From Parcubacteria group bacterium (lineage in GTDB: Bacteria > Patescibacteriota > Minisyncoccia > JACPHC01), in the NCBI GenBank assembly GCA_016188775.1, contig JACPHC010000003.1, positions 344-64,343 of the forward strand: a stretch of 64,000 bases of DNA, read 5' to 3'. The notes under the pieces were generated by a model, which had not been told where the DNA came from, made no database searches, and saw only the letters and a list, made by a program, of their open reading frames with translations. This document shows, in pieces, positions 5,597 through 56,950 of the stretch. Every line of letters begins with the position of its first letter. Position 1 is the stretch's first letter. The translations under genes were made by a program, and so were the position numbers.

Positions 5597-5605
5597 AAAA
5601 TAATT

Positions 5606-5626
5606 TTATGAGGCTTAGCCTCGTAA
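5606..5626. repeat. REP-like palindrome (copy 5), 10 nt upstream of the RAYT start
   Basis: TTATGAGGCTTAGCCTCGTAA. Confidence 0.8.
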
Positions 5627-5670
5627 AGTCAAGTTTTACATCTAAATAATTTATATGATAAAATATAACT

Positions 5671-6753: not shown

Positions 6754-6757
6754 GTAT

Positions 6758-7612: not shown

Positions 7613-7758
7613 TTTTAATCTCCGGCCTATCCGCTCTATTCGTTGTAATAATTTTATTTTTTCTGGCGATTTTTCCTTTATCCAAAAAAATCAAGGAAAC
7701 GTCAAATAAAATATCCGAAACGAGATATGAAATTTTAAAAATCGCCAAGAAAAAACAA

Positions 7759-8145
7759 ATGAGCCGAAAAATAGAAGATCAATTCGAAAAAACTCAAAAA
7801 GATCTGCCGGAAATTAAAAACGCCTTATTCGATCCGGAAAAATTAGTGGATCTGGTGGTGACCTTGGAAGACATAGCGGCCGAAACATCAACCCAGCTTA
7901 ATATCGGCGAATCAAACACGCAGCAAAAATTCATCAATTTCTCCGTCAATCTCTGGGGAAATTTTACTAATTTTTACCGTTTTATAAAAAAAATAGAAAA
8001 TCTGCCGTATCTCGATCAAATTGACACTATCGCGATTAAAAAACTGGAACCGCAGGAAATTGCCGTTCGCAATCAAAACGGAGGCCCGATTCTCGGATCG
8101 GGCGATATTGGAGCGGTTATGAAATTTAAAATATTTACTCAATGA
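7759..8145 (+). CDS. pilO: PilO-like pilus assembly protein (periplasmic domain). The N-terminal transmembrane segment is encoded in frame upstream, from 7573, without a canonical start codon.
   Basis: Position in the pilM-pilN-pilO order. The upstream in-frame translation gives ...ILISGLSALFVVIILFFLAIFPL (a TM helix) with no ATG, GTG or TTG between the stop at 7570 and 7759. Confidence 0.5.
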   Translation: MSRKIEDQFEKTQKDLPEIKNALFDPEKLVDLVVTLEDIAAETSTQLNIGESNTQQKFINFSVNLWGNFTNFYRFIKKIENLPYLDQIDTIAIKKLEPQEIAVRNQNGGPILGSGDIGAVMKFKIFTQ

Positions 8146-10547: not shown

Positions 10548-12074
10548 ATGAACACCATCCTGCTTGTCTCGAGCGGGGCGACATTGGTTTTGGGTTTAGC
10601 TTTCGGATATTTTCTAAGAAAATCAATCGCGCAAAAACAAGCTCAATCAATCGAAGCCCAAATCGAGCATAAATTAAACGCAGCGAGCACAGAGGCCAAA
10701 GAGATTTTAATCGAGGCCAAAACGAATGCCGTTAAAATTTTAGAAGAAGCCAAACGCGAAGAAAAAGAAACTCAAGTTCGGTTTTTAAAAACCGAGGAAA
10801 GACTGTCAAGACGCGAAGAACAAATTGCCTCGCAACTGGCGGATTTTAAAAAACGCGAAGATGATTTGGGGCAAAAAATAGAAAACGTCAAGCAAATAAG
10901 GGTTAAGCTCGAAACCCTTGAAAAAGAACAAAGCGAATCCTTGGAACGAACGGCTCAACTGACTCAAGCTCAAGCCAAAGATGAGCTTTTTAAGATTGTG
11001 GAAAAAAATCATTCCGATGATCTGTTTAAAAAAATTCAGAAGCTGGAATTTTCAGGAAAAGAAGATCTGGAAAAAAAAGCCCGCGACATATTAGCGGCAG
11101 CCATTCAACGTTATGCCGGCTCTCACGCGGCCGAACTGACCACTACGACTTTGACTTTGCCATCCGATGATTTGAAAGGCAAAATTATCGGAAAGGAAGG
11201 ACGCAATATCCGAACTTTGGAACGGCTGACCGGCGTTGAAATTATTATTGACGAGACGCCGGAAACGTTGATGATTTCCGGTTTTGATCCGGTCCGGCGC
11301 CAAATCGCGAAAATAGCTCTGGAAAAATTGATGGTTGACGGACGCATCCAGCCGGCTCGAATTGAAGAAACGGTTGAAAAAGCCAAAGAGGAAATTACAA
11401 CGAAAATCAAAGAAGCCGGAGATCAGGCTTGCTACGAATGCGCTGTGACGGGTATTGATCCTCGGCTATCCTATCTTTTGGGAAGACTTAAATACCGAAC
11501 CAGTTACGGACAGAATGTTCTTTTGCATTCCGTGGAAATGGCTCATATAGCCGGCATTATGGCCAAAGAATTGGGAGCCGATGTTGGAGCGGCAAAAATG
11601 GGAGCTTTATTCCATGATATTGGCAAAGCCGTTGATCATGAAGTCAGCGGCACCCATGTTGAAATCGGCCGGAATATTTTAAAGAAATTTAACGTCAAAG
11701 AAGAAGTGATTGAGGCGATGCAGTCGCATCACGAAGAATATCCCTACGCGACCTTGGAGTCTCGGATAGTTCAGGCCGCTGACGCGATTTCCGGCGGCCG
11801 ACCCGGAGCGCGCCGAGACACGGCCGAATTATTCTTAAAGCGATTGGAAGATTTGGAAAAAATCGCCAATTCGTTTCCAGGAGTTGAAAAATCTTACGCT
11901 ATTGCCGCCGGCCGCGATCTTAGGGTTTTTGTCAAGTCAACGGAAATTGACGATCTGGGCGCTAAAAGAATGGCCCGCGATATCGCTTTGCGAATTGAAC
12001 AAGAAATGCAGTATCCGGGAGAAATAAAAATCAATGTTATTCGTGAAACAAGAATAATTGAATACGCCAGGTAG
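10548..12074 (+). CDS. rny: Ribonuclease Y
   Basis: N-terminal TM helix, coiled coil, KH domain (GKIIGKEGRNIRTLERLTGVEIIID) and HD domain (HSVEMAHIAGIMA ... FHDIGK). Confidence 0.9.
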   Translation: MNTILLVSSGATLVLGLAFGYFLRKSIAQKQAQSIEAQIEHKLNAASTEAKEILIEAKTNAVKILEEAKREEKETQVRFLKTEERLSRREEQIASQLADFKKREDDLGQKIENVKQIRVKLETLEKEQSESLERTAQLTQAQAKDELFKIVEKNHSDDLFKKIQKLEFSGKEDLEKKARDILAAAIQRYAGSHAAELTTTTLTLPSDDLKGKIIGKEGRNIRTLERLTGVEIIIDETPETLMISGFDPVRRQIAKIALEKLMVDGRIQPARIEETVEKAKEEITTKIKEAGDQACYECAVTGIDPRLSYLLGRLKYRTSYGQNVLLHSVEMAHIAGIMAKELGADVGAAKMGALFHDIGKAVDHEVSGTHVEIGRNILKKFNVKEEVIEAMQSHHEEYPYATLESRIVQAADAISGGRPGARRDTAELFLKRLEDLEKIANSFPGVEKSYAIAAGRDLRVFVKSTEIDDLGAKRMARDIALRIEQEMQYPGEIKINVIRETRIIEYAR

Positions 12075-26483: not shown

Positions 26484-27074
26484 TTATACCCTTTTTCCTT
26501 TTATAATTTCATCAACCACGCCGTAGGTCTTGGCTTCCTCGGCGGACATAAAAAAATCCCGGTCCGTGTCTTTTTGAATTTTAGCCAAACTTTGACCGGT
26601 GTGTTTGGCTAAAATTTGATTAAGTTTGTCGCGGATTTTCAGAATGTGTTTGGCAGAAATTTCTATTTCCACGGCTTGACCTTCGACTCCGCCCATTACT
26701 TGATGGAGTAAAATTTCCGAATTGGGCAAAGCGAATCTTTTGCCTTTTTGGCCGGCGGCCAGCAACACCGCCCCCATGGAAGCGGCATAACCGACGCAAA
26801 AAGTGGAAATTTCCGGTTTAACTAGCTGCATTGTGTCATAAATGGCCAGTCCGGCCGTCACCGAGCCGCCAGGGGAATTGATGTAGAGATGGATATCTTT
26901 TTTTGGATCCTCGTGCTCTAAAAATAAAAGCTGAGCAATAACGATGCTGGCCACGGCATCGGTAATCGGACCGCCTAAAAAGACGATTCGATCTTGAAGA
27001 AGGCGGGAATAAATGTCATAGGCTCGTTCTCCGAATTGCGATTTTTCGATAACGGTTGGGATTAAGTAAGTCAT
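26484..27074 (-). CDS. clpP: ATP-dependent Clp protease proteolytic subunit
   Basis: IVFLGGPI ... [20 protein letters not shown] ... [11 protein letters not shown] ... LHQVMGG. Confidence 0.95.
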
Positions 27075-30964: not shown

Positions 30965-32215
30965 TTAATTTTTTTCTTCCGATATTTCTTTTTCACCCGC
31001 CTCGGCTTCTTCTTTCAATCCCTCAATGGCTTCTCCGGTTGATTTAATTCCGACAACATCGATTTTCCAGCCGACAAGACGCGCGGCCAGCCGGACATTT
31101 TGCCCGCCTTTGCCGATTGCCAGAGAAAACTGATCTTCCAAAACTTCGGCTTTGGCATAATGAGTTTTCTCGTCTATTTTGACGTCGAAAATTTTGGCCG
31201 GTGAAAGAGCGTTAGCAATAAATTTGGCTTGGTCTTCGTTCCATTCGATAATATCAATTTTTTCGCCGCCCAGTTCGGATATGACCGTGCCGACTCGGGT
31301 GCCTTTCTGCCCTACCAAGGAGCCGACCGGATCAACGCGTTCTTGGGTTGAAGCAACGGCGATTTTTGTCCGGGAACCGGCTTCCCGAGCAATGGATTTG
31401 ATCACGACCGAGCCAACGGATATTTCTGGCACTTCCAGCTCAAAAAGCCTGGAAACTAACATCGGATGAGTTCGGGAAAGAATAACCCCCGGCCCTTTAA
31501 GGCTTTTTTCCACTCTTAAAATAAAAAATTTGTTGCGCGAACCGATATGATATCTTTCCCCGAAAATTTGTTCTTCCGGAAAAAGAATAGCCTGGGTTTT
31601 GCCGATTAAAACGAAAACTCGCCGGCCTTCGATTCGTTGCACTATGCCGCTGGCCGCTTGTCCTTCTTTATCTTTAAATTCATTATAGATTGTATCGCGT
31701 TCCACTTCGCGAATGCGCTGGATGATGACTTGTTTGGCGGTTTGAGCCGCGATCCGCCCATAGTCGTCTCTCGATTCAAGAGGAAACTCCAGTTCATCTC
31801 CCGGCTTCGCATCTTGTTTGATTTTTTTAGCTTCATCAATCATCATATGCCGTTCCAGGTTAAAGCGAACTCTTTTTTCAGTTATTTCCTCATTTTTTTC
31901 AGATCCAGCTTCAGCCGCCGCTTCTTTAATTTCTTCTTTTTCGCTTTGAACGGCTCTATTTTCAGAAATTTCTTGTTCGATTTCCTCTTCTTTTTTAATC
32001 ATGCTTTCGTCAAGAACGATTTTAATTTGAGAAAATTTGACTTTCCCGGTCTCCGGATCGAGCTTGGCCCGAATGATTTGCTGTTTTTCGCCGTATTCTT
32101 TTTTGTAAGCCGCGGCAATAGCCAGCTCAATGGTGGCAATAACTTGTTCGGATTTAATGCCTTTTTCTTCGGCGATTTGAGCAATGGCTGATAAAAATTG
32201 TTTTTGGTCAATCAT
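30965..32215 (-). CDS. nusA: Transcription termination/antitermination factor NusA
   Basis: N-terminal domain, S1 and two KH regions (VDPVGSLVGQKGTRV...). Confidence 0.9.
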   Translation of the reverse strand: MIDQKQFLSAIAQIAEEKGIKSEQVIATIELAIAAAYKKEYGEKQQIIRAKLDPETGKVKFSQIKIVLDESMIKKEEEIEQEISENRAVQSEKEEIKEAAAEAGSEKNEEITEKRVRFNLERHMMIDEAKKIKQDAKPGDELEFPLESRDDYGRIAAQTAKQVIIQRIREVERDTIYNEFKDKEGQAASGIVQRIEGRRVFVLIGKTQAILFPEEQIFGERYHIGSRNKFFILRVEKSLKGPGVILSRTHPMLVSRLFELEVPEISVGSVVIKSIAREAGSRTKIAVASTQERVDPVGSLVGQKGTRVGTVISELGGEKIDIIEWNEDQAKFIANALSPAKIFDVKIDEKTHYAKAEVLEDQFSLAIGKGGQNVRLAARLVGWKIDVVGIKSTGEAIEGLKEEAEAGEKEISEEKN

Positions 32216-35845: not shown

Positions 35846-35960
35846 GCTAATTTTATCCAATCTGACAAGCTTAAATTCTCCGGCCTTAATTTTGGATCAA
35901 GGCCGGATTTTTTCAGCCAAATCTCGACTTTTTCTTTATCAAGGCCGAGGTTTTTAAATC
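35846..35960 (-). pseudogene. Diverged duplicate of the ksgA 3' end (encodes ...GLDPKLRPENLSLSDWIKLAKVSF*) immediately downstream of the functional gene
   Basis: About 115 nt, roughly 80% identical to 35990-36075. Confidence 0.55.
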
Positions 35961-35982
35961 TTACGATGCTAAGCCTCGTAAG
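35960..35982. repeat. REP-like palindrome (copy 6, one mismatch) forming the last codons and stop of ksgA
   Basis: CTTACGATGCTAAGCCTCGTAAG; the minus-strand reading gives ...VLRGLAS*. Confidence 0.75.
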
Positions 35983-46240: not shown

Positions 46241-47014
46241 ATGAAAAATATAAAAACGTTTGTATCCTCTCTTTTTTTAACATTTATTTTTACTCATATT
46301 GCTTTTGCCGGCACTGCAACGCTTTCTTGGAACGCAAATACGGAAACTGATTTAGCGGGTTATAAAATATATTACGGGACATTGCCCAGAACCAATTCTT
46401 GTCCATTAGGCGGCTATCCAAACAATATCAACGCAGGCAATGTCACGTCTTATGTTTTTAGCAATTTAACTGACGGTCAAACATATTATTTCTCTATTAC
46501 GGCTTACGATGCTTCAAGCAATGAAAGTTGTTTTTCAAGCGAAGTCAGTAAATATATTCCAGTGCCAAATATATATATTTCAAATGTTAAATTTATTCCC
46601 GTTATTGAGAGCGCGACAAGTATTTCTGGTAAAAATTTCACAATAACAATTTTTAATGCCGGAACAACAACCCAAGTCGCTCAATTTACGACTCAACTCG
46701 ATCAATCAGGAAATTTAGTAATGCCTGCGAGCATAAATATAGAAAGCGGCGTTTACGATATCCTTACTTACTCGCCGACATATCTTAAAAAGAAAAAAAA
46801 TAATACTGTTTTGTCATCCAATTCAATCACTTCTTTGCCAACATTGCCGGCTGGCGACTTAAATAATGACAATACCATAAACTCGCTTGATTGGTCATTG
46901 ATGAGTCCTAAATGGTTTAGCCAGGACGCAATAGCGGATATTAACGGAGATAATATAATCAATGCTATTGATTATAGTTTTTTAAACAAAAATTGGTGGT
47001 TGGCGGGGGATTAA
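46241..47014 (+). CDS. Secreted protein with an FN3-like domain and C-terminal dockerin-like repeats
   Basis: Signal peptide; DLNNDNTINSLD and DINGDNIINAIDYSFL resemble dockerin Ca-binding repeats. Confidence 0.55.
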   Translation: MKNIKTFVSSLFLTFIFTHIAFAGTATLSWNANTETDLAGYKIYYGTLPRTNSCPLGGYPNNINAGNVTSYVFSNLTDGQTYYFSITAYDASSNESCFSSEVSKYIPVPNIYISNVKFIPVIESATSISGKNFTITIFNAGTTTQVAQFTTQLDQSGNLVMPASINIESGVYDILTYSPTYLKKKKNNTVLSSNSITSLPTLPAGDLNNDNTINSLDWSLMSPKWFSQDAIADINGDNIINAIDYSFLNKNWWLAGD

Positions 47015-47029
47015 AACAAAATAATTTTT

Positions 47030-47662
47030 ATGAATCAATTCATTAATATAACAAAAGGCAAAACAAGATGGTTTTTTATTGTGGTCGTATTTTTGACGGG
47101 TGTTGGTTTTACTAGTCTTATTTATATTTCTTTACTCTCGACTTCTTTATATATAGAAGGCTTAAATGAATATATTTATAAAAAACAGCCCTTAGTGGCG
47201 CTTTCGCTTATCACTCCAAAAGTTGAAAACTATAAAATTGGCGATCTTGTTGAGGTCGGCATTTTATTAGAAAATGGACAAAAAAAGACGACCGGAGTTG
47301 ATATAGTCTTAACTTATGATCCTCAAATAGTGGAACTTCAAGGCAAAAATTCGCAGATTAAACAAAACGGCAAAACGGAGCCGAAAAATTTTCTTGATGT
47401 TGAATTTTCTTCTTTTGATTTTTTCCCTTATTTTAATTTAAATACTAAAAATGGAAAAATATATTTTTCTGCTTTAGCTAGGCCTTTAAGAGAAGTAGTG
47501 GGAAAAGGAGTAATAGCCACATTAACTTTTAAGGTTATTAAAACAGGAGAAACGAGTATTAATTTAGTTTTTGAAAAGGGCCTTTCTTCGGATTCTAACG
47601 TGGCTTACGCCGGCCGAGATATTTTAAAGCAGGTGCGCAATCTTAATCTTGTTATTAAATGA
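47030..47662 (+). CDS. Membrane-anchored cohesin-like domain protein
   Basis: N-terminal TM segment and a beta-sandwich cohesin-like pattern (VEVGILLENGQKKTTGVDIVLTYDPQIVEL ... VIATLTFKVIKTGETSINL). Confidence 0.45.
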   Translation: MNQFINITKGKTRWFFIVVVFLTGVGFTSLIYISLLSTSLYIEGLNEYIYKKQPLVALSLITPKVENYKIGDLVEVGILLENGQKKTTGVDIVLTYDPQIVELQGKNSQIKQNGKTEPKNFLDVEFSSFDFFPYFNLNTKNGKIYFSALARPLREVVGKGVIATLTFKVIKTGETSINLVFEKGLSSDSNVAYAGRDILKQVRNLNLVIK

Positions 47663-49233
47663 ATTATTTGTTGGGTTTTAAAAATAAAAACCGCCTTTTT
47701 TATTGTCTTATTTTTTTATTTTTTCTACCCGGCATAACGGCAAAAGCGGCTACTTTGTCTTTATCGCCAGCTTCCAGTTCTCAGACAATTGGAGACATTT
47801 TCTCAGTCAATATTTTATTGGACACTCAAGCCGCGGGGATTGATGGCGCGGATATCCTTTATTTAAATTTTAACCCGGTTTTGCTGGAAGTTCAGGATGA
47901 TAATATTGGGGTTACCGGTGTTCAAATTGCCCCGGGCGTTTTAATGATGAATACTTTGGCGAATTCCGCGGATAATGCTACCGGCAGAATCAGTTTTTCT
48001 CAAATTCCGGATTTTGGAAACGCTTTTACCGGAAATGGCGCGTTGGCCACTGTTCGTTTTAAGGCTCTTGCCGCTGGAACTGCGACGGTAACTTTTAATT
48101 TTACCCCTGGCGCGACTAACGACACCAACGCAGCTTCCGGTGGAACTGATATTTTAACCAGCGCTACTAATGGAAATTATACTTTAATCGTTAATCCGCC
48201 ACCATCAGGAGGTGGTGGAGGTGGAGGTGGAGGTGGTGGAGGTGGGGGAGGATCGGATACTACGCCTCCTTCCGCCGTCGCTAATTTAACTGCTTCAAAT
48301 CCCACTGAAACTTCCGTAATTCTTAAATGGATTGCTCCCGGAGATGATGGGGCAAATGGAACAGCTTCAAGTTACGATATACGATATTCGTCAACTTCAA
48401 TCATTACCGATGCTAATTGGATTTCCGCTGTTCAGGCGACAGGCGAACCTATTCCTCAAACGGCCGGCGCTTCCCAATCTTATACTTTAGTCGGACTTAC
48501 GCCATCTAAAACTTATTTCGCCGCAATAAAAACGACTGATGAGCAGTCAAATACCTCCGCTCTTTCCAATATTGCGACATTTCAAACAAATAGTCCGCCT
48601 CCTCCGCCAGATGGAGGCGGCAGTGGTGAAGGTTATGTATCTCCCGCCTCTGACACTTCGCCTCCTGCAAATGTAAAAAATCTTATTTTAACCCCTGGCG
48701 TTAAACGGATTAAGCTTGCGTGGTTAAATCCCAAAAGCGATCCTGATTGGGTAAGAACGATGATTGTAAGAAAAATCGGTTCCGCTCCTATAAGCACTTT
48801 AGACGGCGTTAAAATTTATGAAGGAACAGAAGGAACATTTATTGATTTAAATTTGGAAAAGAATAAGGAATATTTTTATTCCGTTTTTACCCTTGACCTC
48901 GTGCCGAATTATTCCAAAGGAGTAATGGCAAAGGGAATTGCTTTAACTAATCCTTCTTTTTCTTTTACTAAAAACCTTCTTCGTGGTTCAGTCAGCGAAG
49001 AAGTTAAAAATCTTCAAATTCTTCTTAACAATCTTGGTTTTCAGGTAGCGCGATCAGGCAGAGGTTCTTCGGGTAATGAAGTAAACTATTTCGGCAACTT
49101 AACCAAGCAAGCTGTTATTAAATTCCAGAATCATTATCGCGCTGAAATTTTAACTCCTGCCGGATTAACCAAAGGCACGGGTTATGTTGGACCGCTAACA
49201 AGAGCTAAATTGAATATTTTAGCTGAAAAATAA
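47659..49233 (+). CDS. Cell-surface protein: signal peptide, cohesin-like domain, poly-Gly linker, FN3 domains and a C-terminal peptidoglycan-binding domain
   Basis: SVNILLDTQAAGIDGADILYLNFNPVLLEV (cohesin-like); 13 consecutive Gly; TPPSAVANLTAS (FN3 start); C-terminal LQILLNNLGF ... LTKQAVIKFQ (PG_binding_1-like). Confidence 0.6.
   Translation: MNYLLGFKNKNRLFYCLIFLFFLPGITAKAATLSLSPASSSQTIGDIFSVNILLDTQAAGIDGADILYLNFNPVLLEVQDDNIGVTGVQIAPGVLMMNTLANSADNATGRISFSQIPDFGNAFTGNGALATVRFKALAAGTATVTFNFTPGATNDTNAASGGTDILTSATNGNYTLIVNPPPSGGGGGGGGGGGGGGGSDTTPPSAVANLTASNPTETSVILKWIAPGDDGANGTASSYDIRYSSTSIITDANWISAVQATGEPIPQTAGASQSYTLVGLTPSKTYFAAIKTTDEQSNTSALSNIATFQTNSPPPPPDGGGSGEGYVSPASDTSPPANVKNLILTPGVKRIKLAWLNPKSDPDWVRTMIVRKIGSAPISTLDGVKIYEGTEGTFIDLNLEKNKEYFYSVFTLDLVPNYSKGVMAKGIALTNPSFSFTKNLLRGSVSEEVKNLQILLNNLGFQVARSGRGSSGNEVNYFGNLTKQAVIKFQNHYRAEILTPAGLTKGTGYVGPLTRAKLNILAEK
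48205..48251 (+). repeat. GGA/GGT simple sequence repeat encoding a poly-Gly linker
   Basis: GGAGGTGGTGGAGGTGGAGGTGGAGGTGGTGGAGGTGGGGGAGGA. Confidence 0.8.
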
Positions 49234-49266
49234 TCTGCAAATAATACTGCTAATTCTTATATTTTA

Positions 49267-50394
49267 CTATAAAACTACTAATCCCGTCGGCGCGGAAGGC
49301 GGCGTGGTGTCGGAAGTGGTCAAGAGATACCCATTTGCATTTACATTGCCATTCTCATCAATCACATATAAGTAAGTGCTAATAAAATCACTAAAAGAAC
49401 CCTGATTCAAAGTTATGATAATAGATGTATTTGACCAAGCAGACGGGATTTGGATTTCGCACTTATTACGAATGGTAGAAGTTGCACCAGCACAAACTTC
49501 AACTCTTGCCCAAGAGTTATCAATATATAAATCATCCCAATAAGTACTAACAGCTTGTCCCGTGGGGACATTAACTAATCCATATCCAAAATGAGGAGTT
49601 GATAAATATGTACCTGTTTGGGATATTGTAACACCAGTTTTACTTCTTCTAACGACAGTCCCATCACTATGATAAGCAACCCAATTTGCAACTCCATCTG
49701 AAGAATTTGCATCTGTTGAGTCTCGGAACTCTATTTCAAACCGTACCCACTGTGCAGGTCTTATCCAATCATCCCAAGTAGAAGGAATCCATTCTCCGCC
49801 TGTAGAGCCGGTTCTAAACTCATAATAGTTACCACTTGAGCCTATTGTGCCATCAGCTTCCCACCAAGATTGTAAAGCTAACACCGGTTCATCTGCATGT
49901 GCAGGGCCTGAACCAATATGAATTAATTTAATCTGCCAATCTACTAAACTTTGTAAACTTACCATACTCACATAAAGATACCCAGAAATGTATTTTATCC
50001 CTGTAGTCGTCCAAGCATTTAATTTGTAAAAACCATTATTACCTGGACCAAAACCAGTACCTGGATACACCATCCTATCTACTACTGACAAACTTGAACG
50101 ACTATTTCTTTGATTTTTATTTGTGAATTTTGCATCCGCCTGATCATCCCTATTAGTCCAATAACCAGTTGATTCTACATCATTACCATTTGTACCATTT
50201 TCAAAATTCTCCCATTTCAATGGCGCAGCAGTTGCCTTTGTCCCAAACCCACTCCCCGCAATTGTCACTATCCCGTTATGAACAAATGCGCCGCCTGTAT
50301 TCGTGATCTGCACCGCCGCGCTTGCAAAACCCACTCCCCCAAAAAGCCCGAGGGAAATTATGGCGAAGTAAATTAGGTTTTTTGTTTTGCGCAT
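49267..50394 (-). CDS. Secreted surface protein, paralogue 1 (conserved 5' and 3' boxes, variable core; ends ...TTPPSAPTGLVVL*)
   Basis: Signal peptide MRKTKNLIYFAIISLGLFGGVGFASA. The N-terminal ~55 aa and C-terminal ~45 aa are near-identical to 51414..52481. GC is higher than the local average. Confidence 0.6.
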   Translation of the reverse strand: MRKTKNLIYFAIISLGLFGGVGFASAAVQITNTGGAFVHNGIVTIAGSGFGTKATAAPLKWENFENGTNGNDVESTGYWTNRDDQADAKFTNKNQRNSRSSLSVVDRMVYPGTGFGPGNNGFYKLNAWTTTGIKYISGYLYVSMVSLQSLVDWQIKLIHIGSGPAHADEPVLALQSWWEADGTIGSSGNYYEFRTGSTGGEWIPSTWDDWIRPAQWVRFEIEFRDSTDANSSDGVANWVAYHSDGTVVRRSKTGVTISQTGTYLSTPHFGYGLVNVPTGQAVSTYWDDLYIDNSWARVEVCAGATSTIRNKCEIQIPSAWSNTSIIITLNQGSFSDFISTYLYVIDENGNVNANGYLLTTSDTTPPSAPTGLVVL

Positions 50395-50523
50395 GTTTTT
50401 AGTTTACCACCAATCCCGTCGGCGCCGCGGGCGGGGTGGTGTCGGGCAGTTTTTCGCGCGTTTTAATATATTATTTTGCTATTCCAAATTTTTTCGGATT
50501 TTCTAAAACACCTTTAACTCCTC

Positions 50524-50883
50524 TTAAGAAAACATCAAAATCAACCAATTTATCATTGATGATTTTATAATTCTGTAACCAGCCATCTCTTGTAGCGCGG
50601 TATCGGCAAAGTGTTTGTCAACAATGTGATATTCTCCGATTTTTCTTGCCATCTCTTTGTATTCCGAAGCCTGGGCGCCGGGAATTCTCGATAATATGTG
50701 GGCGCTGATATGGAACACTCCTTCCAATGCTCGATGGAGGTGGAATTGAGCTAATTTAAAACCAACTCCTTTTTCAAATTCTTCAAACGACAATTGCGCG
50801 AGCTTCTCAAGTTCTTTAATTTCTCCTTGAATTCCGTTTATTCTTTTTAGAATAATGTCTCTATCAAGAAAAAGTTTTGTCAT
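50524..50883 (-). CDS. hepT: HepT-like (DUF86) toxin of a HepT/MntA toxin-antitoxin pair
   Basis: Size and a C-terminal RxxxxHxY-like region (ARKIGEYHIV); 4-nt overlap with the upstream MntA gene. Confidence 0.6.
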   Translation of the reverse strand: MTKLFLDRDIILKRINGIQGEIKELEKLAQLSFEEFEKGVGFKLAQFHLHRALEGVFHISAHILSRIPGAQASEYKEMARKIGEYHIVDKHFADTALQEMAGYRIIKSSMINWLILMFS

Positions 50884-51290
50884 ATTCTTTGAAGTATGGC
50901 TTTATGGAACTCTGATCGCAATGGAGCAAAATCGGCATATTCCTCCATTGTCGTTTCCAAGAAATTTGAGATTATTTTCTGATCTCCAAGATAGAGCAAA
51001 ACGCCGTCTTGGGCGATGCGATGCTTAATTTGTAAATCAGCTTGTTCAACAAAGACAATATCAATATTGATTAGGGCGTTAATTTGTTTAGACAGTATTT
51101 CATAAAGCTTATTATAGATTTTTTTTCTTTCCGCGGCGTCTCTTATCATTTTTTTATTTTTAACCAAAACGGCAAAGTCAAAATCGCTGGTTTTATTTGC
51201 CGTTCCCTGGGCTTGTGAACCAAACAAAAAAATGCCGGCAATGCCAAGTTCTTCCATTTTTTCTTTTTGAAATTTAAATTTCATAAACAT
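50880..51290 (-). CDS. mntA: MntA-like minimal nucleotidyltransferase (antitoxin)
   Basis: GS-x9-13-DxD motif: LFGSQAQGTANKTSDFDFAV. Confidence 0.75.
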   Translation of the reverse strand: MFMKFKFQKEKMEELGIAGIFLFGSQAQGTANKTSDFDFAVLVKNKKMIRDAAERKKIYNKLYEILSKQINALINIDIVFVEQADLQIKHRIAQDGVLLYLGDQKIISNFLETTMEEYADFAPLRSEFHKAILQRI

Positions 51291-51317
51291 AATATACCAT
51301 AGTAATTATTACCAGTT

Positions 51318-51413
51318 CAACTTTAATTTACCGCCAATCCCGCCCGCCTTCATTACATTACGGCCCGCTTCGCCTAAGCTCCAGCGAGGCGAGCGAGGCC
51401 AGTCGGCCTTCAA
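51318..51413. repeat. GC-rich stacked scars of the surface-protein 3' module (near-identical to 52515-52600)
   Basis: AATCCCGCCCGCCTTCA ... TTACGGCCCGCTTCGCCTAAGCTCCAGCGAGGCGAGCGAGGCCAGTCGGCCT is shared by both loci. Confidence 0.7.
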
Positions 51414-52481
51414 TTAATTTACGGCGAGGCCCGTCGGCGCGGAAGGCGGGGCGGTGTCGGGAGTGGTCAAGAGATACCCATTTGCATTTACATTGCCATT
51501 CGCATCAAATACGTAGAGGTAGGCATTATTTTGAATTTCTAGATTTCCTTGGTTTATAGTTATTGTAATGGAGGTATCTGACCAGGCTAATGGAATCTGA
51601 ACCTCCCGAATAGTGGAGGCCGCCAAAGTTGGAGCATTCCCAATCTCAGCCCTAGCCCACGTGTTATCTATATATATGTTATCCGCATATGTAATATCAT
51701 CAGGTCTACCCGTAGCACCACCTGCCGCGGCTGCACCTACCCATCCTCCAATATGGGGTTCCTGAATTCCTGGGGCATTTGTGTCGGCAAAACGAAGCCC
51801 AGTTCCGCTTGATATAAGGACATTATCCATATATATATACGCAGAACCATTAGCTCCATATACCCCATTATTATAATCTATATCTAATATAACCTTAAAA
51901 TCGTACCATTTGTCCTTTAACGCAGAAAAATTTCCCCATGAGGTTTCGGGCGACAGATTACCTAAATATATTTTATTAAGCTCATGTCTTGCGTCTAACG
52001 CAAAATTCGGGGGCGCGCCATCCCAATTATCGCCCCACATGAATATTTTTTCGTTTCCAGTGCCTCCGCTTGTGTCAAAAGTAAAATTAGGATCCCATTT
52101 CCATTTAAAAAAGGCTATTGTATGGTTGAGCGTTTGCCCCACAGGTTTTGATGCCCATCTTGTTCCATAGTTTGCGAATGATTCAAATTGCAGGAATCTT
52201 GTTGAGACTGCGCTTATTTGGTTAGGGCCTGTTGCGTAAACATTGTTACCAATAACACTATTATAATTAGCTGCGACCGTGCCTGTTTCAGCATCATCCC
52301 ACCATAGCGGCGCAGCTATTGCCTTTGTCCCAAACCCGCTCCCCGCAATTGTCACTATCCCGTTATGAACAAATGCGCCGCCTGTATTCGTGATCTGCGC
52401 CGCCGCGCTTGCAAAACCCGCTCCCCCGAAAAGCCCGAGGGAAATTATGGCGAGACAAATTATGTTTTTTGATTTGTTCAT
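51414..52481 (-). CDS. Secreted surface protein, paralogue 2 (ends ...DTAPPSAPTGLAVN*)
   Basis: Signal peptide MNKSKNIICLAIISLGLFGGAGFASA. Termini are shared with paralogue 1; the core is divergent. Confidence 0.6.
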   Translation of the reverse strand: MNKSKNIICLAIISLGLFGGAGFASAAAQITNTGGAFVHNGIVTIAGSGFGTKAIAAPLWWDDAETGTVAANYNSVIGNNVYATGPNQISAVSTRFLQFESFANYGTRWASKPVGQTLNHTIAFFKWKWDPNFTFDTSGGTGNEKIFMWGDNWDGAPPNFALDARHELNKIYLGNLSPETSWGNFSALKDKWYDFKVILDIDYNNGVYGANGSAYIYMDNVLISSGTGLRFADTNAPGIQEPHIGGWVGAAAAGGATGRPDDITYADNIYIDNTWARAEIGNAPTLAASTIREVQIPLAWSDTSITITINQGNLEIQNNAYLYVFDANGNVNANGYLLTTPDTAPPSAPTGLAVN

Positions 52482-52514
52482 AAATTTGACCCTAAACTAA
52501 TGACCGCTTTCTAC

Positions 52515-52600
52515 TGTACCGCTAATCCCGCCCGCCTTCAATTAATTTACGGCCCGCTTCGCCTAAGCTCCAGCGAGGCGAGCGAGGCCAGTCGGCCTGC
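52515..52600. repeat. GC-rich 3' module scar (copy of 51318-51413)
   Basis: About 75 nt near-identical to the 51340-51413 copy. Confidence 0.7.
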
Positions 52601-52604
52601 AATC

Positions 52605-52907
52605 TTAATATATATATGGGTTGTATATTTCTACGTCTGATTGAAGGTTTATGATTCCCGAGACACCGAAAATTACTATCCTTGCCTCTGAAGCAGTCAC
52701 GGCCTCTCTGAAACTTCCAGGCCCATTATCATTTAAGTTTGTAACTCTAATAACTTGTCCTCCCCTGCCGCCCACGCTATTTGCTCCAAAACCTTCAGCC
52801 CCTGGAAAAGCAACTAACGCAAATGAACTTTTGGAAATTCCAAAGACGCCAAGCAGGATAATGATATTAATAATTAAAATTTTGCTTTTTAATTTCATAT
52901 TTCCCAC
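52605..52907 (-). pseudogene. N-terminal fragment (100 aa) of a pectate-lyase-like secreted protein
   Basis: Signal peptide plus AFPGAEGFGANSVGGRGGQVIRVTNLNDNGPGSFREAV (the pectate lyase N-terminal motif), then a premature stop followed by the module scar. Confidence 0.5.
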
Positions 52908-54103
52908 GCTTCAATAATATTGTGTCTGCCAACGTTTTTCATTTTAACGGATAAAGAAACAATTTTAAAATTAAAATCTTTATAATTTTCCATAAAAATT
53001 TTATAATTCTTTTCTTTAAATTGCAGCGGCTGGGCTTTAACTTCTATCGCTTCCTTTTCTTTAATAATAAAATCAATTTCATTTTTCTGGACTGTGCGCC
53101 AAAATTTTATATCATTTGAATCATATTTATCAAGAAGCTGGCGGAAAACAGCGTTTTCAAGAAGTATGCCCTTATCTTCCCTTGTGTCATAAGGAGAAAA
53201 ATTATCAACCAAAAAATTTCTTAATCCCAAGTCGTAAAAATAAACCTTGGGCATCTTGGTTAGCTCTTTTCTTACATTTTTATAAAAAGGGTTTATCAAT
53301 TTTATATGAAATGATTTTTGCATTACATATAAATAATGATCTACGGCGGTTTTTGAAACTCCCAAAGTATTAGCTAATTCCGAAGCATTAACGAGACTGC
53401 CAACCTGAACGGCAAAAATCTTGAATAATTTATAAAAAATTTCTTCTTGCCGAATATGGGCCTCAAAAATATCTTTTTTGATATACGAATAAACTATGTC
53501 TCTCAAAATATCTTGCTTTTCCGATAAAGGAGCTAAAACCACCCGCGGATAGCCGCCGTAAATAATATACTCTCTATAATATAGCTCAATTTTTTCTTTT
53601 TCAGACAATGTTAATTTTTCAAAATCTTTTTTGGATAATTCTTCTTCCTCTTTAAAGCGCAGAAATTCCCTGAAAGAAACGGTGAAAACATTGAATATCT
53701 TTTTTCTTCCGGCCAGCGAATCTTTAAATTTTTTATCCAAATAAAACGCGGATGAGCCGGAAGCAATAATTTTAATAGCGCCGGCATACTCGTCATAAAA
53801 ATATTTTAAAAAATTTGAAGGATTTTTGAGATATTGAATTTCATCAATAAAAATAAAGTTTTTCTTTTTTAAATCAACGGGGAAAATTTTAAAAAGATTT
53901 TTAGGCGATTCATTAAGCAGAATCAGATAATCAGGATCTTCTAAATTCAAAAAATAGGTTTTTTTATTCTCTTGTTCAAGAATGCTTTGAAGTTGTTTTA
54001 AAATTGTAGTTTTTCCCGCTTGTCTTGAGCCAATAAAAATAAGGATTTCCGGATCCTCAAGGTATTTTCGGGCTTTTAATGTAATATCTCTGATAATAGT
54101 CAT
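52895..54103 (-). CDS. AAA+ ATPase with C-terminal DUF4143-type domain (COG1373-like)
   Basis: Walker A GSRQAGKTT and Walker B IFIDEIQ; 402 aa. Confidence 0.7.
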   Translation of the reverse strand: MTIIRDITLKARKYLEDPEILIFIGSRQAGKTTILKQLQSILEQENKKTYFLNLEDPDYLILLNESPKNLFKIFPVDLKKKNFIFIDEIQYLKNPSNFLKYFYDEYAGAIKIIASGSSAFYLDKKFKDSLAGRKKIFNVFTVSFREFLRFKEEEELSKKDFEKLTLSEKEKIELYYREYIIYGGYPRVVLAPLSEKQDILRDIVYSYIKKDIFEAHIRQEEIFYKLFKIFAVQVGSLVNASELANTLGVSKTAVDHYLYVMQKSFHIKLINPFYKNVRKELTKMPKVYFYDLGLRNFLVDNFSPYDTREDKGILLENAVFRQLLDKYDSNDIKFWRTVQKNEIDFIIKEKEAIEVKAQPLQFKEKNYKIFMENYKDFNFKIVSLSVKMKNVGRHNIIEAWEI

Positions 54104-54144
54104 AAATACATTTTATCCGTTATTTTGTATTTGTCAAATTATTA

Positions 54145-54195
54145 TTTCTATTGTACCACTAATCCCGCCCGCCTGAGAGACCCTTTCGCCTGCAA
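54145..54195. repeat. GC-rich 3' module scar (variant copy)
   Basis: CTAATCCCGCCCGCCTGAGAGACCCTTTCGCCTGCAATTAATTTACGG. Confidence 0.6.
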
Positions 54196-55962
54196 TTAAT
54201 TTACGGCTAGGCCAGTCGGCGCCGCGGGCGGGGTAGTGTCCTGCTGTGCTCCTGACACATATTCATACGCGCCAATATCCCAAGCCAATCCTTGTGGGCG
54301 AGTTACCTTGTCGAAGTCTACGGCGATAGAGAGGCCGTAAATATTTTGGAAGGTTTGGTAAACCGAGGAAACAAGGCCCGCATTTACAGCGGAACTTCCC
54401 GATTGGAGATGGAAATCATTTGCCGATGAGTTTACAAATAACGGATCGGCATTCAAAGAATTCGCGCCCTTACTGGTTGCCGACTGGAAAGTGGCAAGCG
54501 AGGTATAGGTATTCGCGCCCCAAATCGTCTTAAAACCACCTCCAAAAAGAAAGTTATCAACCGTTGAGTTTGCGGCGTTTATCGATGAAGCAAGAAATAT
54601 ATCGCTTCCCGCTCCCAGTCCCGCGATAATGTTATTAGCCATGAAAAAAGAGCCGCTGTCGGGGGAATTCACGCCAGCGTCCACATCATAAAATGTATTG
54701 TTGATGACATAGCGGTTCCGCCCTCCCCAGGTGGTCATGGCCGCTCCGTTTGAATAAGCGTTATTGGGATCGAAAGCCGGACTGTGAATGCCATGAATCA
54801 CGTTGCCGATAAAATACAAATTCTGACCAAAGCCATCTCCATCCGGCCCGCTTGTGCTGGCGCCGCCGATACCCGTGTGGCAATCATACAAATTGTTATA
54901 GAGAAACCACACCCGTTCCGGACCGTACTGATACCCGGCGCAATTGCCCCCGGACGACGATGGGCTTGGCACAATTCCGTAGGCGGTATTTCGCGAGAAA
55001 ACCACATCGGTTGCCTGCTTCGTCCAAAATCCGGTCTGTTTATGGTGATGAGATGTATTTCCCCCAAAATAAATATGATGAGTTCGCGACGTAACTGAAT
55101 CAGAATCCGCCTTGCTGCCGCCGTTGACTTGAATGCCGTCGCCGCTGCAGCGCGCAAGTTCATTATCGAGCACCCAAACATTGTCAGCATGCCCAATTCC
55201 GACACAATGAACATCTTGGTCGATCGTTGTGGCGATGTCGCCATTGTCATGGATATAATTACTGTACACCAAAATATTCGAAATTCGGTTAGTATCAGAG
55301 CTTGCGATCTCGACTCCGCCGCCCACGAGGTTCCCATGCGCGTCGCTAAAACGAAGCGCGAGGTGATCTGACGGCGATACGATAACGAAACTCCCGGACG
55401 AGCCTCCGGAAAGGTCGCCGTCCGCATCGGCAAATTCAAGATTTTCGAAGATAGCATAAGTTCCCTTGACTTGCATGTTTGCAATAATTTTTGGCTTTTC
55501 TGAATCGCTAACCCCCCGGATAAAGACCGGACTTGTCGAGGTTCCGTTCGCGGTAATGATATTAGGATTGGTATAGCTGCATATCCCTGAGCAATCCCGA
55601 TATATATTTCCATGCATTTCGACAACGGATCCTTCCGGAATGGGTTTAGGCGGACTTTTTCGCGGTAAGGCCGGTGTTCCATAGAGGTTATTTGAATCAG
55701 TAGCGCCGGCGCATGAAGTGCAGACGAAATAAAAGCCGGGGGTGGGCAATGTCCATGGATTCGGGGCTACGGGCGCGGTTTCTGCGATGCCAAACGGCGG
55801 ATTTGGAATGCCGACAGGAGGAATATACGCGTGAACCGTACTTCCCAAAACGATGATGCTTGCCAAGACTAGGAACAACGAAGCGAGCCAAAGCGATATT
55901 TGTTTTATAAGCCAACGGAAAGGAAAATAATTTAAATATGAAATATTTGCTTTTTTAAACAT
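54196..55962 (-). CDS. Secreted right-handed beta-helix (pectate-lyase-fold) protein ending in the shared ...DTTPPAAPTGLAVN* module
   Basis: Signal/TM segment, NxDxxH-rich beta-helix repeats (NGDIATTIDQDVHCVGIGHADNVWVLDNE...) and WDIGAYEY near the C-terminus. High GC. Confidence 0.65.
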   Translation of the reverse strand: MFKKANISYLNYFPFRWLIKQISLWLASLFLVLASIIVLGSTVHAYIPPVGIPNPPFGIAETAPVAPNPWTLPTPGFYFVCTSCAGATDSNNLYGTPALPRKSPPKPIPEGSVVEMHGNIYRDCSGICSYTNPNIITANGTSTSPVFIRGVSDSEKPKIIANMQVKGTYAIFENLEFADADGDLSGGSSGSFVIVSPSDHLALRFSDAHGNLVGGGVEIASSDTNRISNILVYSNYIHDNGDIATTIDQDVHCVGIGHADNVWVLDNELARCSGDGIQVNGGSKADSDSVTSRTHHIYFGGNTSHHHKQTGFWTKQATDVVFSRNTAYGIVPSPSSSGGNCAGYQYGPERVWFLYNNLYDCHTGIGGASTSGPDGDGFGQNLYFIGNVIHGIHSPAFDPNNAYSNGAAMTTWGGRNRYVINNTFYDVDAGVNSPDSGSFFMANNIIAGLGAGSDIFLASSINAANSTVDNFLFGGGFKTIWGANTYTSLATFQSATSKGANSLNADPLFVNSSANDFHLQSGSSAVNAGLVSSVYQTFQNIYGLSIAVDFDKVTRPQGLAWDIGAYEYVSGAQQDTTPPAAPTGLAVN

Positions 55963-55984
55963 TAGTAATTTTTTATATTAGTTT

Positions 55985-56040
55985 CAAATTTTAATTTACC
56001 GCCAATCCAGTCGGCGTGGCGGGCGGAGTGGTGTCAGGGG
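55985..56040. repeat. 3' module scar upstream of the beta-helix protein gene
   Basis: TTAATTTACCGCCAATCCAGTCGGCGTGGCGGGCGGAGTGGTGTCAGG. Confidence 0.6.
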
Positions 56041-56081
56041 TGAGAAAAATAGGCGCGCCTCCTCCAAGTCGGGCTTTTTTA

Positions 56082-56450
56082 TTATTCCACGTGCTTTAAA
56101 CAAGTTTTGGCGGCCGGGTTGGCTTCCAATCGCTCCAATTCAATTTTTTCTTGGCCGATTTCGCAAAAACCGTATTGGCCGGCTTTCATTTTAACAAGCG
56201 CGGCGTCAACTTCTTTTAATCTCAATTCCAAAACATGTTCTTCGCCCACTAAATTATCGTATTCCTCAACTTCATCTTGCGCCTCATCGCGATAAATTCC
56301 GATTTCCTGGCCAAATTGAGGATAACGAGTGTCCCAGTCGCCTTTTAATTTCGGGTCCCTTTTGGCAAAACGAGAAAGAGTGTTTTCCAAATCTTTTTTT
56401 TCTTTAATCAGAGCCGATTCTAATTTTTCTAAAAATTTTTGATCTAACAT
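56082..56450 (-). CDS. DksA/TraR-family C4 zinc-finger protein
   Basis: GQYGFCEIGQEKIELERLEANPAAKTCLKH, a DksA-type zinc finger. Confidence 0.75.
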   Translation of the reverse strand: MLDQKFLEKLESALIKEKKDLENTLSRFAKRDPKLKGDWDTRYPQFGQEIGIYRDEAQDEVEEYDNLVGEEHVLELRLKEVDAALVKMKAGQYGFCEIGQEKIELERLEANPAAKTCLKHVE

Positions 56451-56486
56451 ATTTATTAAATAGAATAAATTAAAAATTAAATAAGG

Positions 56487-56750
56487 TTACAAGTGTTTAT
56501 AAATATCTTTACGGTGATCAATATCAAAAAAGATCACTGTTGTCATGTCTTGAAAATAAAATAAAACTCTATATTGACGAGTAATTCTAAATGAAAAAGC
56601 ATATTCAAGAGAATAAACTTTTTTGATATGTAATCGTGAATCACGCCAGTTATTAACAAAACGCTCCTTTTGGATTTCAAAAAAGCGTTGGATATTTTTT
56701 GGTAATTTAGAAAAATTATGATCAAAATCTTCAGAACAGATTATCCGCAT
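56487..56750 (-). CDS. RelE/ParE-family toxin
   Basis: An 87-aa product with YRVLFYFQDMTTVIFFDIDHRKDIY, the RelE/ParE C-terminal signature. Confidence 0.6.
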   Translation of the reverse strand: MRIICSEDFDHNFSKLPKNIQRFFEIQKERFVNNWRDSRLHIKKVYSLEYAFSFRITRQYRVLFYFQDMTTVIFFDIDHRKDIYKHL

Positions 56751-56950
56751 AATAATCTTGGAGGATATTTTTTTAAGGCTTTCTGATATGAATTTTTAAT
56801 CCGTTCCGGATGCGCGTATTCTTTAATATTTTCTCGTGGAAGAATTAATGTGATTTCCTGACGCAAAAAACGCACTTCTTGCAAAAGAGAATTTAGTGTT
56901 TTATTGATGTTTAATTTATCTTTTTGAATTTTAACAGTCGTTGTATTCAT
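56741..56950 (-). CDS. Putative cognate antitoxin (69 aa)
   Basis: Directly upstream of the toxin with a 10-nt overlap; a palindromic operator lies upstream. Confidence 0.45.
   Translation of the reverse strand: MNTTTVKIQKDKLNINKTLNSLLQEVRFLRQEITLILPRENIKEYAHPERIKNSYQKALKKYPPRLLCG

Follow-up and report, generated by a model that had tools for sequence, protein, structure and literature searches.

A C-terminal strand-A tag on secreted proteins and a putative FN3 partner at a dynamic surface-protein locus of a Parcubacteria group bacterium

The subject of this analysis is a surface-protein locus of a Parcubacteria group bacterium of the candidate phyla radiation (CPR), located in a stretch of 64,000 nucleotides (nt) of contig JACPHC010000003.1 that is referred to as the window and whose positions are used throughout. 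Three genes of this locus, all on the minus strand, code for secreted proteins that end in a common C-terminal module, DTTPPxAPTGLxVx followed directly by the stop, and their coordinates and endings are as given in the original prediction, which had been made from the letters of the DNA. This peptide, here called the tag, consists of a Pro/Thr linker (DTTPP) and β-strand A of a fibronectin type III (FN3) domain (P-x-A-P-T-G-L-x-V-x), and is found on 3 of the 89 open frames of at least 100 amino acids (aa) in the window. The reading of the module as an FN3 start cut by a stop is borne out, as is the presence of an intact FN3 start in the product of 47659-49233, where the Pfam fn3 match begins with profile position 1 at residue 205. 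The tag itself is an FN3 fragment and not a domain, as it covers only the linker and strand A (about positions 1-10 of the fn3 profile) before the stop, and Pfam finds no fn3 match in the three tagged proteins.

Gene 1 (49267..50394) encodes a secreted protein of 375 aa ending in DTTPPSAPTGLVVL, which is composed of a signal peptide, an Ig/IPT-like set of strands (Ig, immunoglobulin), a divergent jelly-roll core, a C-terminal Ig-like domain and the strand-A tag, and which has no match in Pfam or NCBIfam. The secreted product of gene 2 (51414..52481; 355 aa, ending in DTAPPSAPTGLAVN) has the same architecture. Its AlphaFold2 (AF2) model (mean predicted local distance difference test score (pLDDT) 77.7, predicted template modelling score 0.80) shows Ig-like ends around a β-jelly roll and places the tag in a free, unstructured tail of low confidence, with a pLDDT below 50 for residues 350-355. 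Foldseek matched the core to TtX122, PL36, PL20, PL14 and PL7 with E values down to 7.5e-07, and the modeled core may accordingly be described as a β-jelly roll resembling those of polysaccharide lyases and lectins. The centres of genes 1 and 2 had been called unrelated; while their cores indeed cannot be aligned, the two proteins are members of a single family and share their domain order. Gene 3 (54196..55962) encodes a secreted right-handed β-helix protein of 588 aa that ends in DTTPPAAPTGLAVN. Its residues 514-568 form a choice-of-anchor Q domain (NCBIfam NF041518, 1.8e-08), a domain whose usual position is just before sorting signals, and the tag follows directly. No dockerin, transmembrane anchor or other sorting signal was found in the products of genes 1-3 with Pfam and NCBIfam.

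The module primarily encodes a C-terminal peptide, linker and FN3 strand A and then a stop, and is not in the first place a recombination box. Homologues of gene 2, which were retrieved from many taxa regardless of how they end, in most cases stop 3-5 residues past P-T-(G/N)-L (as in APTNLRVQ, PPTSLQVQ, APTGLRILR and APTGLVVD, each with the stop following), and their common order is signal peptide, Ig-like start, variable core and Ig-like end. The last 85 residues of gene 3 were searched against 1.84 billion representative proteins; among the best 150 of 4,082 homologues, which were inspected, the tag terminates the protein in at least 16 cases and leads into an intact FN3 domain in only 3, which argues that a stop after strand A is the normal state rather than an accident of truncation. 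An exact-pattern scan of metagenome contigs revealed at least 80 loci with the tag, with GC contents of 0.36-0.66 and often in the form of same-strand tandem arrays, and the tag is present on at least four unrelated catalytic contexts (..WDIGAYEY.. β-helix, ..YTPYTYPHPLR.., ..NGNVNANGY.. and ..FDIDYVRLYE..). Third codon positions of 86 non-redundant modules show an entropy of 0.9-1.9 bits and are thus nearly free, so that conservation acts on the peptide. The notion that the module is the scar of a truncated domain is therefore not supported, given a conserved and widespread stop after strand A and free third codon positions. Nor is the module specific to CPR bacteria, as tagged loci span the GC range given above and the peptide occurs in many phyla. 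The strict pattern has a single match in the GTDB representative genomes, the Candidatus Brennerbacteria contig L001, and viral contigs gave a single loose match (PTGFLVQ and stop), hence no link to phages. No Pfam or NCBIfam model covers the tag.

The window also encodes an FN3 domain without strand A, denoted FN3(ΔA), which we propose to be the receptor or adaptor for the tag. It belongs to an FN3(ΔA)-dockerin protein (46241..47014, plus strand) in which signal-peptide cleavage between ..AFA and G is directly followed by FN3 strand B, GTATLSWNANTETDLAGYKIYYG, then by the remainder of the β-sandwich and a type I dockerin (Pfam Dockerin_1). Pfam fn3 matches this protein only with profile positions 15-74, from residue 25 directly after the signal peptide, and in alignments mature residue 1 falls on residue ~17 of human fibronectin FN3 domains. 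The AF2 model has six FN3 strands at a pLDDT of 89-98, the first of them at residues 24-29. With strand A absent, the domain does not qualify as a complete FN3. A sequence search of the PDB with FN3(ΔA) returned only distant human fibronectin and designed Kelch proteins and no solved relative. The two genes that follow on the plus strand encode a membrane-anchored cohesin (47030..47662; Pfam Cohesin) and the above-mentioned protein with the intact FN3 start, a cohesin-FN3-peptidoglycan-binding protein (47659..49233; Pfam Cohesin, fn3 and PG_binding_1).

The 85 FN3(ΔA) homologues are small proteins of 72-149 aa, in which an N-terminal membrane anchor or signal peptide is directly followed by G(S/T)ATLSWNANTE.DLAGYKIYYG, and in all of the ~38 FN3(ΔA) occurrences of the fetched loci a strand-A motif is absent upstream. 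One natural intact version is P0116, in which ETPPAAPIGLTQ.. immediately precedes ..LSISWNAN... As separate observations, the family (P0042-P0100; window 46241-47014) contains two invariant-looking cysteines, in ..CPPGGY.. and ..NESCFS.., as well as an invariant W-N-x-N-x-E start, and its signal-peptide forms are always cleaved between AXA and G, giving a mature N-terminal Gly at the start of strand B.

The strongest evidence for a pairing of the tag with FN3(ΔA) is the gene neighbourhood. In five of seven neighbourhoods chosen through the FN3(ΔA) gene alone, and thus independently of the tag, tagged genes are present in the same cluster, in four cases directly upstream on the same strand. These five contexts contain five tagged genes (L085, tag ending in ..SAPSGLSVS), one (L087), three (L089, tag ending in ..SPTGVTVN) and two each (L093 and L095). 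FN3(ΔA) genes were also found in 11 of the tag-selected loci, even though the median length of these loci is only 3.6 kb. Tagged genes, FN3(ΔA)-dockerin genes and cohesin genes occur together in L089 and L095 as they do in the window; L094 carries the FN3(ΔA)-dockerin and cohesin set with no tagged genes nearby. On a Nitrospirae-binned contig, finally, the closest homologue of gene 2 is preceded, at a distance of 25 nt, by the gene for an FN3(ΔA) lipoprotein of 122 aa. Taken together, the tag is very probably a functional C-terminal element that is linked to FN3(ΔA) genes.

But what would such an element do? The tag peptide, the FN3(ΔA) domain and their genomic linkage lead us to suggest strand-complementation docking by means of a split FN3 domain, a proposal whose chances we regard as evenly balanced. 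Unrelated Sec-exported, glycan-acting proteins, at this locus two jelly-roll proteins of lyase or lectin type and one β-helix protein, would carry the tag as a C-terminal address. Its cognate partner would be an FN3 domain without strand A that begins at strand B, right after the site of signal-peptide cleavage or the membrane anchor. Outside the cell the tag would insert as the missing edge strand and thereby complete the FN3 fold, and one anchored receptor could dock many different enzymes. The receptor itself would be held by a membrane helix, by a lipid or, as may be the case here, by a dockerin-cohesin-peptidoglycan connection, with the dockerin of 46241-47014 plugging into the neighbouring membrane-bound and peptidoglycan-bound cohesins. 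The wider idea of a natural split-FN3 'tag and catcher' in CPR and other uncultivated bacteria, in which the tag perhaps also acts as portable homology for swaps of cores and defence cassettes between organisms, is a tentative one that we place somewhat below an even chance.

Several observations weigh against docking. When the tag is concatenated with FN3(ΔA), the Pfam fn3 score increases by 1.5 bits with the real and by 3.8 bits with a scrambled tag, so that the Pfam score does not separate the two, although the tag matches both the FN3 strand-A consensus and P0116. AF2 is confident on the six-strand FN3(ΔA) alone, which may already be a stable and complete domain. Moreover, two of the seven FN3(ΔA) contexts (L092 and L094) have no tagged gene within ~10 kb, most tag-selected loci are too short to reveal a partner, and surface-protein genes cluster anyway, which inflates co-occurrence. 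In the window the receptor gene and the tagged genes converge and are not co-transcribed. Finally, an internal FN3 domain of the WNAN type (L087, residue 523) also lacks a canonical strand A, which hints that this subtype may simply not use strand A.

At the DNA level the tag is encoded by a GC-rich module of ~45 nt that is found at the three gene ends, in two complete orphan copies and in five truncated or rearranged spacer copies. A degenerate 29-nt pattern of the module has exactly 5 sites in the 64 kb against 0.00 expected from shuffles, all of them on the minus strand. Modules A (49267..49311), C (51414..51458) and D (54196..54240) are the tag-coding ends of genes 1, 2 and 3, respectively, A including the TAG stop and being the most diverged copy. 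The orphan module B (50399..50443) encodes a complete tag, DTTPPAAPTGLVVN and stop, without a gene body and 4 nt upstream of the gene 1 ATG, and module E (55991..56035) likewise encodes a complete orphan tag, DTTPPATPTGLAVN and stop, upstream of gene 3. Both are intergenic and lie in open in-frame stretches of 23 (B) and 34 (E) codons that have no start codon. Since the reading frame of B is intact, its differences from the other copies are mostly synonymous and a near-identical module terminates real genes elsewhere (L032, L028), we read B as the relic 3' end of a lost member of the array. The degenerate module copies that had been noted in the spacers are real, in the form of orphans B and E and of the derivatives G1, G2, F1, F2 and F3 described below. 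The alleged GC enrichment of the tagged genes, on the other hand, is evident when gene 3 (0.49) and gene 2 (0.45) are compared with the window mean of 0.39, whereas gene 1 (0.41) exceeds that mean only marginally.

All derivatives lie on the minus strand as well. G1 (51352..51413) is a 5'-truncated module copy with a GC-rich hairpin insertion of 30 nt, which in G is located after ..GGCCT. G2 (52541..52603), which is 95% identical to G1, lies downstream of a truncated gene fragment and has no complete module in front, and F2 (52512..52540) is found beside it, downstream of the same fragment. F1 (51318..51351; TGAAGGCGGGCGGGATTGGCGGTAAATTAA) is a truncated or inverted module derivative in whose 5' part the 5' half of module C recurs as its reverse complement, and it is followed by a promoter-like site for the MNT gene. 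F3 (54149..54195), a module-derived inverted partner downstream of gene 3, is followed by a strong promoter-like site (TTGACA-16-TAAAAT) for an ATPase gene. Common to F1, F2 and F3 is the sequence (TGAA)GGCGGGCGGGATT(A/G)G(C/T)GGTA. Its 5' part is the reverse complement of module CCCGCC(C/T)..C, so that module and F are able to form a long imperfect hairpin, and the pairs differ in a matched way (CCGCC/GGCGG in C/F1, CACTA/TAGTG in D/F3). Compared to shuffles, the fold z-scores are -2.2 for C+G1+F1, -1.8 for E, and about -1 for D+F3 and G2+F2, while those of B and A are close to zero or positive. As only C+G1+F1 marginally beats the shuffles, we make no claim of a structured RNA or DNA element. 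A scan of 49000-56500 against Rfam (E<=1) gave only a chance snoRNA match, and a terminator scan found 7 terminators against 8.6 expected from shuffles and thus no excess.

Within the 64 kb, module, G and F are confined to this locus. G is known from 5 copies in two metagenome-assembled genomes (MAGs), which are 92-100% identical and stand behind different genes, in L001 also behind non-tagged ones. It was further observed that L001 contains, at 7701-7870 and 6100-6300, GC-rich hairpins nested in module derivatives, namely the 30-nt insertion that defines G and a 70-nt double hairpin inside one F copy, both with CGCCTCGC; these nested hairpins are reminiscent of mobile GC clusters in AT-rich genomes.

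Genes of other types are interleaved with the tagged genes, again on the minus strand. The truncated gene fragment mentioned above (52605..52898) is a pseudogene, which codes for a 97-aa N-terminal fragment with signal peptide and the pectate-lyase-like start AFPGAEGFGA... and has lost body and tag through an internal deletion. A product of 97 aa is likewise called in the independent contig L096. The start of the pseudogene overlaps the stop of an AAA_14/DUF4143 ATPase gene (52895..54103; Pfam 1.4e-34 and 7e-30; PADLOC PDC-S01, 3.5e-99), which is a candidate for phage defence. Located between F1 and B, the adjacent and overlapping genes of MNT (50880..51290; Pfam Polbeta/NTP_transf_2 5.6e-16; PADLOC PDC-S09) and HepT (50524..50883; Pfam HepT-like 1.7e-06; truncated by a 43-nt deletion) form a toxin-antitoxin (TA) pair (50524..51290). 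Homologues of the ATPase are present at the same position in L001, L028 and L085. Beyond the locus itself, arrays of tagged genes on at least four unrelated contigs were seen to contain DUF4143/AAA_14 ATPases, with recurrent sites at window 52895-54103, L001 6381-7679, L028 ~500-1759 and L085 4534-5901 and 7333-8529. In most cases a module or the relic of one immediately precedes the ATPase gene, whose stop overlaps or adjoins the start of the tagged gene that follows. Upstream of the locus, two small overlapping open reading frames (ORFs) of 69 and 87 aa (56487-56950, minus strand) resemble a TA pair and have no match in Pfam or PADLOC.

Genes 1 and 2 are mosaics. A shared 5' box of ~170 nearly identical nt had been predicted for them; such a box exists (52279..52481 in gene 2, minus strand, pairing with 50192-50394 in gene 1) and covers the signal peptide and the first Ig-like strands, but it measures 203 nt at 87% identity. 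The shared 3' stretch comprises 92 nt at 90% identity. Along gene 2, codons 1-60 show 85-97% nucleotide identity to gene 1 with 4 synonymous differences, codons 61-300 are unalignable, codons 301-360 retain ~50% amino acid identity with 17 synonymous differences, and codons 361-380 show 95% nucleotide identity with 0 synonymous differences. The gene 2 core (codons 61-340), in turn, has 55-95% protein identity with P0002, the ends of which differ. Similar ends, unalignable cores and a gene 2 core that resembles P0002 together indicate that both ends have been homogenised by gene conversion or recombination. P0002 (L083 3701-4732), which lies in a glycosyltransferase cluster on a Nitrospirae-binned contig, is the relative closest to gene 2, with 69% identity that is confined to the core; this likeness points to an inter-phylum transfer of the core or else to mis-binning.

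Traces of the same kind are present elsewhere, with orphan or truncated tag relics in L003/L035, L008, L018, L023, L028, L057 and L060 and stacked partial module copies in L013, L028 and L040. In L001, three G copies stand behind three different genes, and the last 277 nt of this contig (G, an F copy with the extra 70-nt hairpin insertion, promoter and MNT 5' end) are 99-100% identical to window 51203-51407. More precisely, G1 is 100% identical to L001 7712-7777 over 66 nt, and F1 plus MNT 5' end are 99.3% identical to L001 7842-7988. The junction is an alternative one, in that the G-F-MNT stretch of L001 follows a DUF4143 ATPase and an orphan module and not gene 2. ClpP, NusA, RNase Y, H+-PPase, UvrD and YifB of the window (e.g. 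26484-27074, 30965-32215, 10548-12074) were each seen to be the sole member of their 90%-identity cluster among ~15 billion proteins. With these six housekeeping proteins and the DUF4143 ATPase, seven of the eight window proteins looked up are singletons at 90% identity, the eighth being absent from the collection, and the window organism is without a sequenced close relative. As its housekeeping proteins have no relative at or above 90% identity, the sharing with L001 looks horizontal, or else it stems from another, unplaced locus or strain.

The shared boxes are no assembly artefact, since the junctions gene2-C-G1-F1-MNT, HepT-B-gene1 and gene3-D-F3-ATPase-fragment recur in independent Logan assemblies of other samples. 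At the same time, three independent assemblies from three samples show one fixed arrangement, a result of look-ups with the exact MNT and ATPase proteins, which returned only contigs arranged as the window. The only variant at the population level is the 43-nt deletion and frameshift in HepT, which has 119 aa here and 151 aa in L090 from another sample. The population-level cassette variation envisaged by the original prediction was thus not observed. Its proposal that the shared ends are substrates of recombination agrees with the conversion tracts, the orphan tags, the deleted pseudogene and the one alternative junction, but the part that foresees a dedicated cassette-shuffling system is not supported. 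When the ORFs of the 64-kb window were scanned with Pfam, no recombinase, integrase or reverse transcriptase came to light, and the locus holds no archive of silent cassettes.

We suggest that selection would keep paralogues near-identical in the tag and, in the case of genes 1 and 2, in the signal peptide and first Ig strand as well, and that such GC-rich conserved stretches in an AT-rich genome would offer homology for gene conversion, unequal recombination and the capture of foreign genes. Recombination at the conserved ends could then yield the mosaic genes, orphans B and E, the pseudogene, the stacks of G and F and the interleaved TA and defence-candidate genes with no need of a dedicated recombinase. 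This account of the DNA level by gene conversion and recombination is in part demonstrated by the data described above, and we conclude that the tag and signal-peptide sequences are passive homology in a dynamic array and not a dedicated shuffling machine.

Could the tag serve some other end than docking, or none at all? It might be the signal for a different process, such as recognition by a protease or transpeptidase, O-glycosylation of TTPP or binding of a wall polymer, with the FN3(ΔA) genes merely co-located. The conservation of the tag is explained equally well in this case, choice-of-anchor Q domains usually precede sorting signals, and the invariable Gly at the mature N-terminus of FN3(ΔA) after AXA cleavage is reminiscent of the acceptors in transpeptidation. 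However, the tag has neither the hydrophobic segment nor the basic tail of sortase, exosortase and PGF signals, no NCBIfam or Pfam model matches it and no sortase-like gene is present in the cluster. It also matches FN3 strand A residue for residue, and a neighbouring gene encodes an FN3 that lacks exactly that strand. We therefore consider a signal of this other kind unlikely. Neutral decay, in which the genes would be truncated remnants of enzyme-FN3-anchor proteins and the module copies functionless debris, could draw on the debris that the locus does contain, namely the deleted pseudogene, the orphan tags and the HepT gene with its 43-nt deletion. It would not account for dozens of unrelated lineages and protein families having their stop at one and the same point of strand A, nor for the excess of more than 5 to 1 of tag-then-end over intact FN3 behind the same upstream domain (among the best 150 of 4,082 homologues), nor for a substitution pattern dominated by synonymous changes. 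Neutral decay is already strongly disfavoured and scarcely credible.

With respect to the DNA, the mosaic structure of genes 1 and 2, both ends of which carry conversion tracts, the orphan and stacked module copies and the alternative G-F-MNT junction in L001 would all be expected of a programmed locus for cassette shuffling or antigenic variation, in which shared 5' and 3' boxes exchange variable cores. Yet such a locus appears highly improbable: recombinases, integrases and reverse transcriptases are absent from the 64 kb, where the only transposase is an IS200-like Y1 enzyme 45 kb away; silent promoterless core cassettes are missing; three samples, assembled independently, agree in their arrangement; conservation of the module across phyla is at the protein level, third codon positions being free; and the interleaved TA and defence-candidate genes have promoter-like sites of their own. 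Somewhat more can be said for the module-derived hairpins (module+F, G, B and E) being recombination sites or a small mobile element, similar to attC or to miniature inverted-repeat transposable elements (MITE) and repetitive extragenic palindromic (REP) sequences, that delimits co-oriented cassettes. From E to A, module derivatives bound each of the units and all genes are on one strand, module and F can form a long imperfect hairpin with a bulge whose C/F1 and D/F3 versions differ in a matching way, G stands in 5 copies (92-100% identity) behind different genes of two MAGs, and GC-rich hairpins are nested inside G and an F copy. Against this, neither IntI or another tyrosine recombinase nor core sites of the form RYYYAAC/GTTRRRY were found, the 64 kb have no copies of the elements outside this locus, the fold z-scores are weak (at best -2.2, for C+G1+F1), an inverted match of at least 8 nt lies downstream of only ~7 of 84 tagged genes elsewhere, B and E keep a coding-type pattern of substitution, and Rfam gives no match. 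We thus hold such hairpin elements to be very unlikely, and prefer passive homology of conserved coding ends as the explanation of the array.

Apart from the locus, the window contains six perfect or near-perfect palindromes, ACGAGGCT(A/T)AGCCTCGTAAA, at 1281-1303, 1866-1888, 4951-4973, 5423-5445, 5605-5627 and 35960-35982 (12 strand matches against 0.01 expected). Their sequence bears no relation to that of the module, G or F. Three are located within or at the flanks of the ORF of the 214-aa IS200-like Y1 transposase (4952-5596, minus strand), and palindromes and transposase together look like a pair of REP and REP-associated tyrosine transposase (RAYT) in a CPR genome. The transposase ORF adjoins the type IV pilus assembly genes pilM and pilN (5671-7456).

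If docking by strand complementation is correct, it would constitute a new and widespread way of attaching enzymes to the cell envelope, notably for the ultra-small CPR bacteria, whose surface biology and dealings with hosts or substrates are little known. It would assign a role to the common 'hypothetical' proteins that end in ...PxAPT(G/N)LxVx and to small membrane-anchored FN3 proteins, and it would explain why cohesin and dockerin genes stand beside genes for enzymes that have no dockerin. A natural tag of 10-14 residues with a receptor of ~85 residues might also be of use in protein engineering. The locus would, moreover, illustrate how an address tag at the protein level turns into a hotspot of gene conversion, gene loss and capture of defence genes.

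How does this compare with known systems? With the sorting signals of LPXTG/sortase, PEP-CTERM/exosortase, PGF-CTERM and the type IX secretion system C-terminal domain (T9SS CTD), the tag shares that it is a short C-terminal element on unrelated secreted proteins and, in gene 3, that it follows a choice-of-anchor domain. It differs from them in that it has no transmembrane segment, basic tail or CTD-sized domain and no cognate enzyme in the neighbourhood. A sortase, exosortase or archaeosortase signal was rejected, as the proteins end 3-4 residues past the motif, no NCBIfam sorting domain matches and no sortase-like gene is present. Like integron arrays and clusters of attC sites lacking integron-integrases (CALINs), the locus lines up genes in one orientation whose functions are unrelated, a TA pair among them, and each is followed by an imperfect palindrome of a related kind; different from these, its palindromes are derived from coding sequence and its genes have their own promoter-like sites. 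An integron or attC array was rejected in view of the absence of IntI from the window (Pfam) and of attC cores on inspection, except for one chance GTTGAAC after F1. A diversity-generating retroelement was likewise rejected, the window encoding no reverse transcriptase and the module differences lying mainly in third codon positions without being A-specific.

Closer parallels exist on the side of the protein. Cellulosome-type display by cohesin and dockerin also brings several glycan-active enzymes by means of one short address module to an anchored scaffold, and the tagged genes have neighbours that encode cohesins, a dockerin and a peptidoglycan-binding anchor. Here, however, the enzymes have no dockerin, which instead is found on the FN3(ΔA) adaptor, and the address is a strand of 10-14 residues as compared to a Ca-binding domain of 60 residues. 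In SpyTag/SpyCatcher, an engineered split of the CnaB2 β-sandwich, a short terminal strand and the remainder of the domain reconstitute in trans; the split proposed here would be a natural one, of FN3 and not of CnaB2, and does not imply an isopeptide bond. Neither a strand-A tag nor an FN3 receptor without strand A was found described in Pfam, NCBIfam, the PDB or the searchable literature, and in the literature on split FN3, strand-A tags, CPR cohesin-dockerin systems and the peptide strings only a preprint on the CPR Pam pilus proved relevant. It demonstrates donor-strand exchange into truncated Ig-like domains in CPR Pam pili (bioRxiv 10.64898/2026.03.03.709456). As in donor-strand pili (Pap/Fim and CPR Pam), we find an Ig-like acceptor that lacks one edge strand, FN3(ΔA), and a short donor strand on another secreted protein, with Sec export and a precedent that includes CPR bacteria. 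In those pili it is the last strand (G) of a pilin that is missing, whereas here it is the first strand (A) of an FN3 domain. The donor, moreover, is placed at the extreme C-terminus of enzymes and not on pilins, the cluster contains no polymerising subunits or PapD-like chaperone, and many donors would face one receptor, to which their binding is inferred. We thus put forward the pairing of tag and receptor as a testable hypothesis, that of a new variant of strand-complementation docking.

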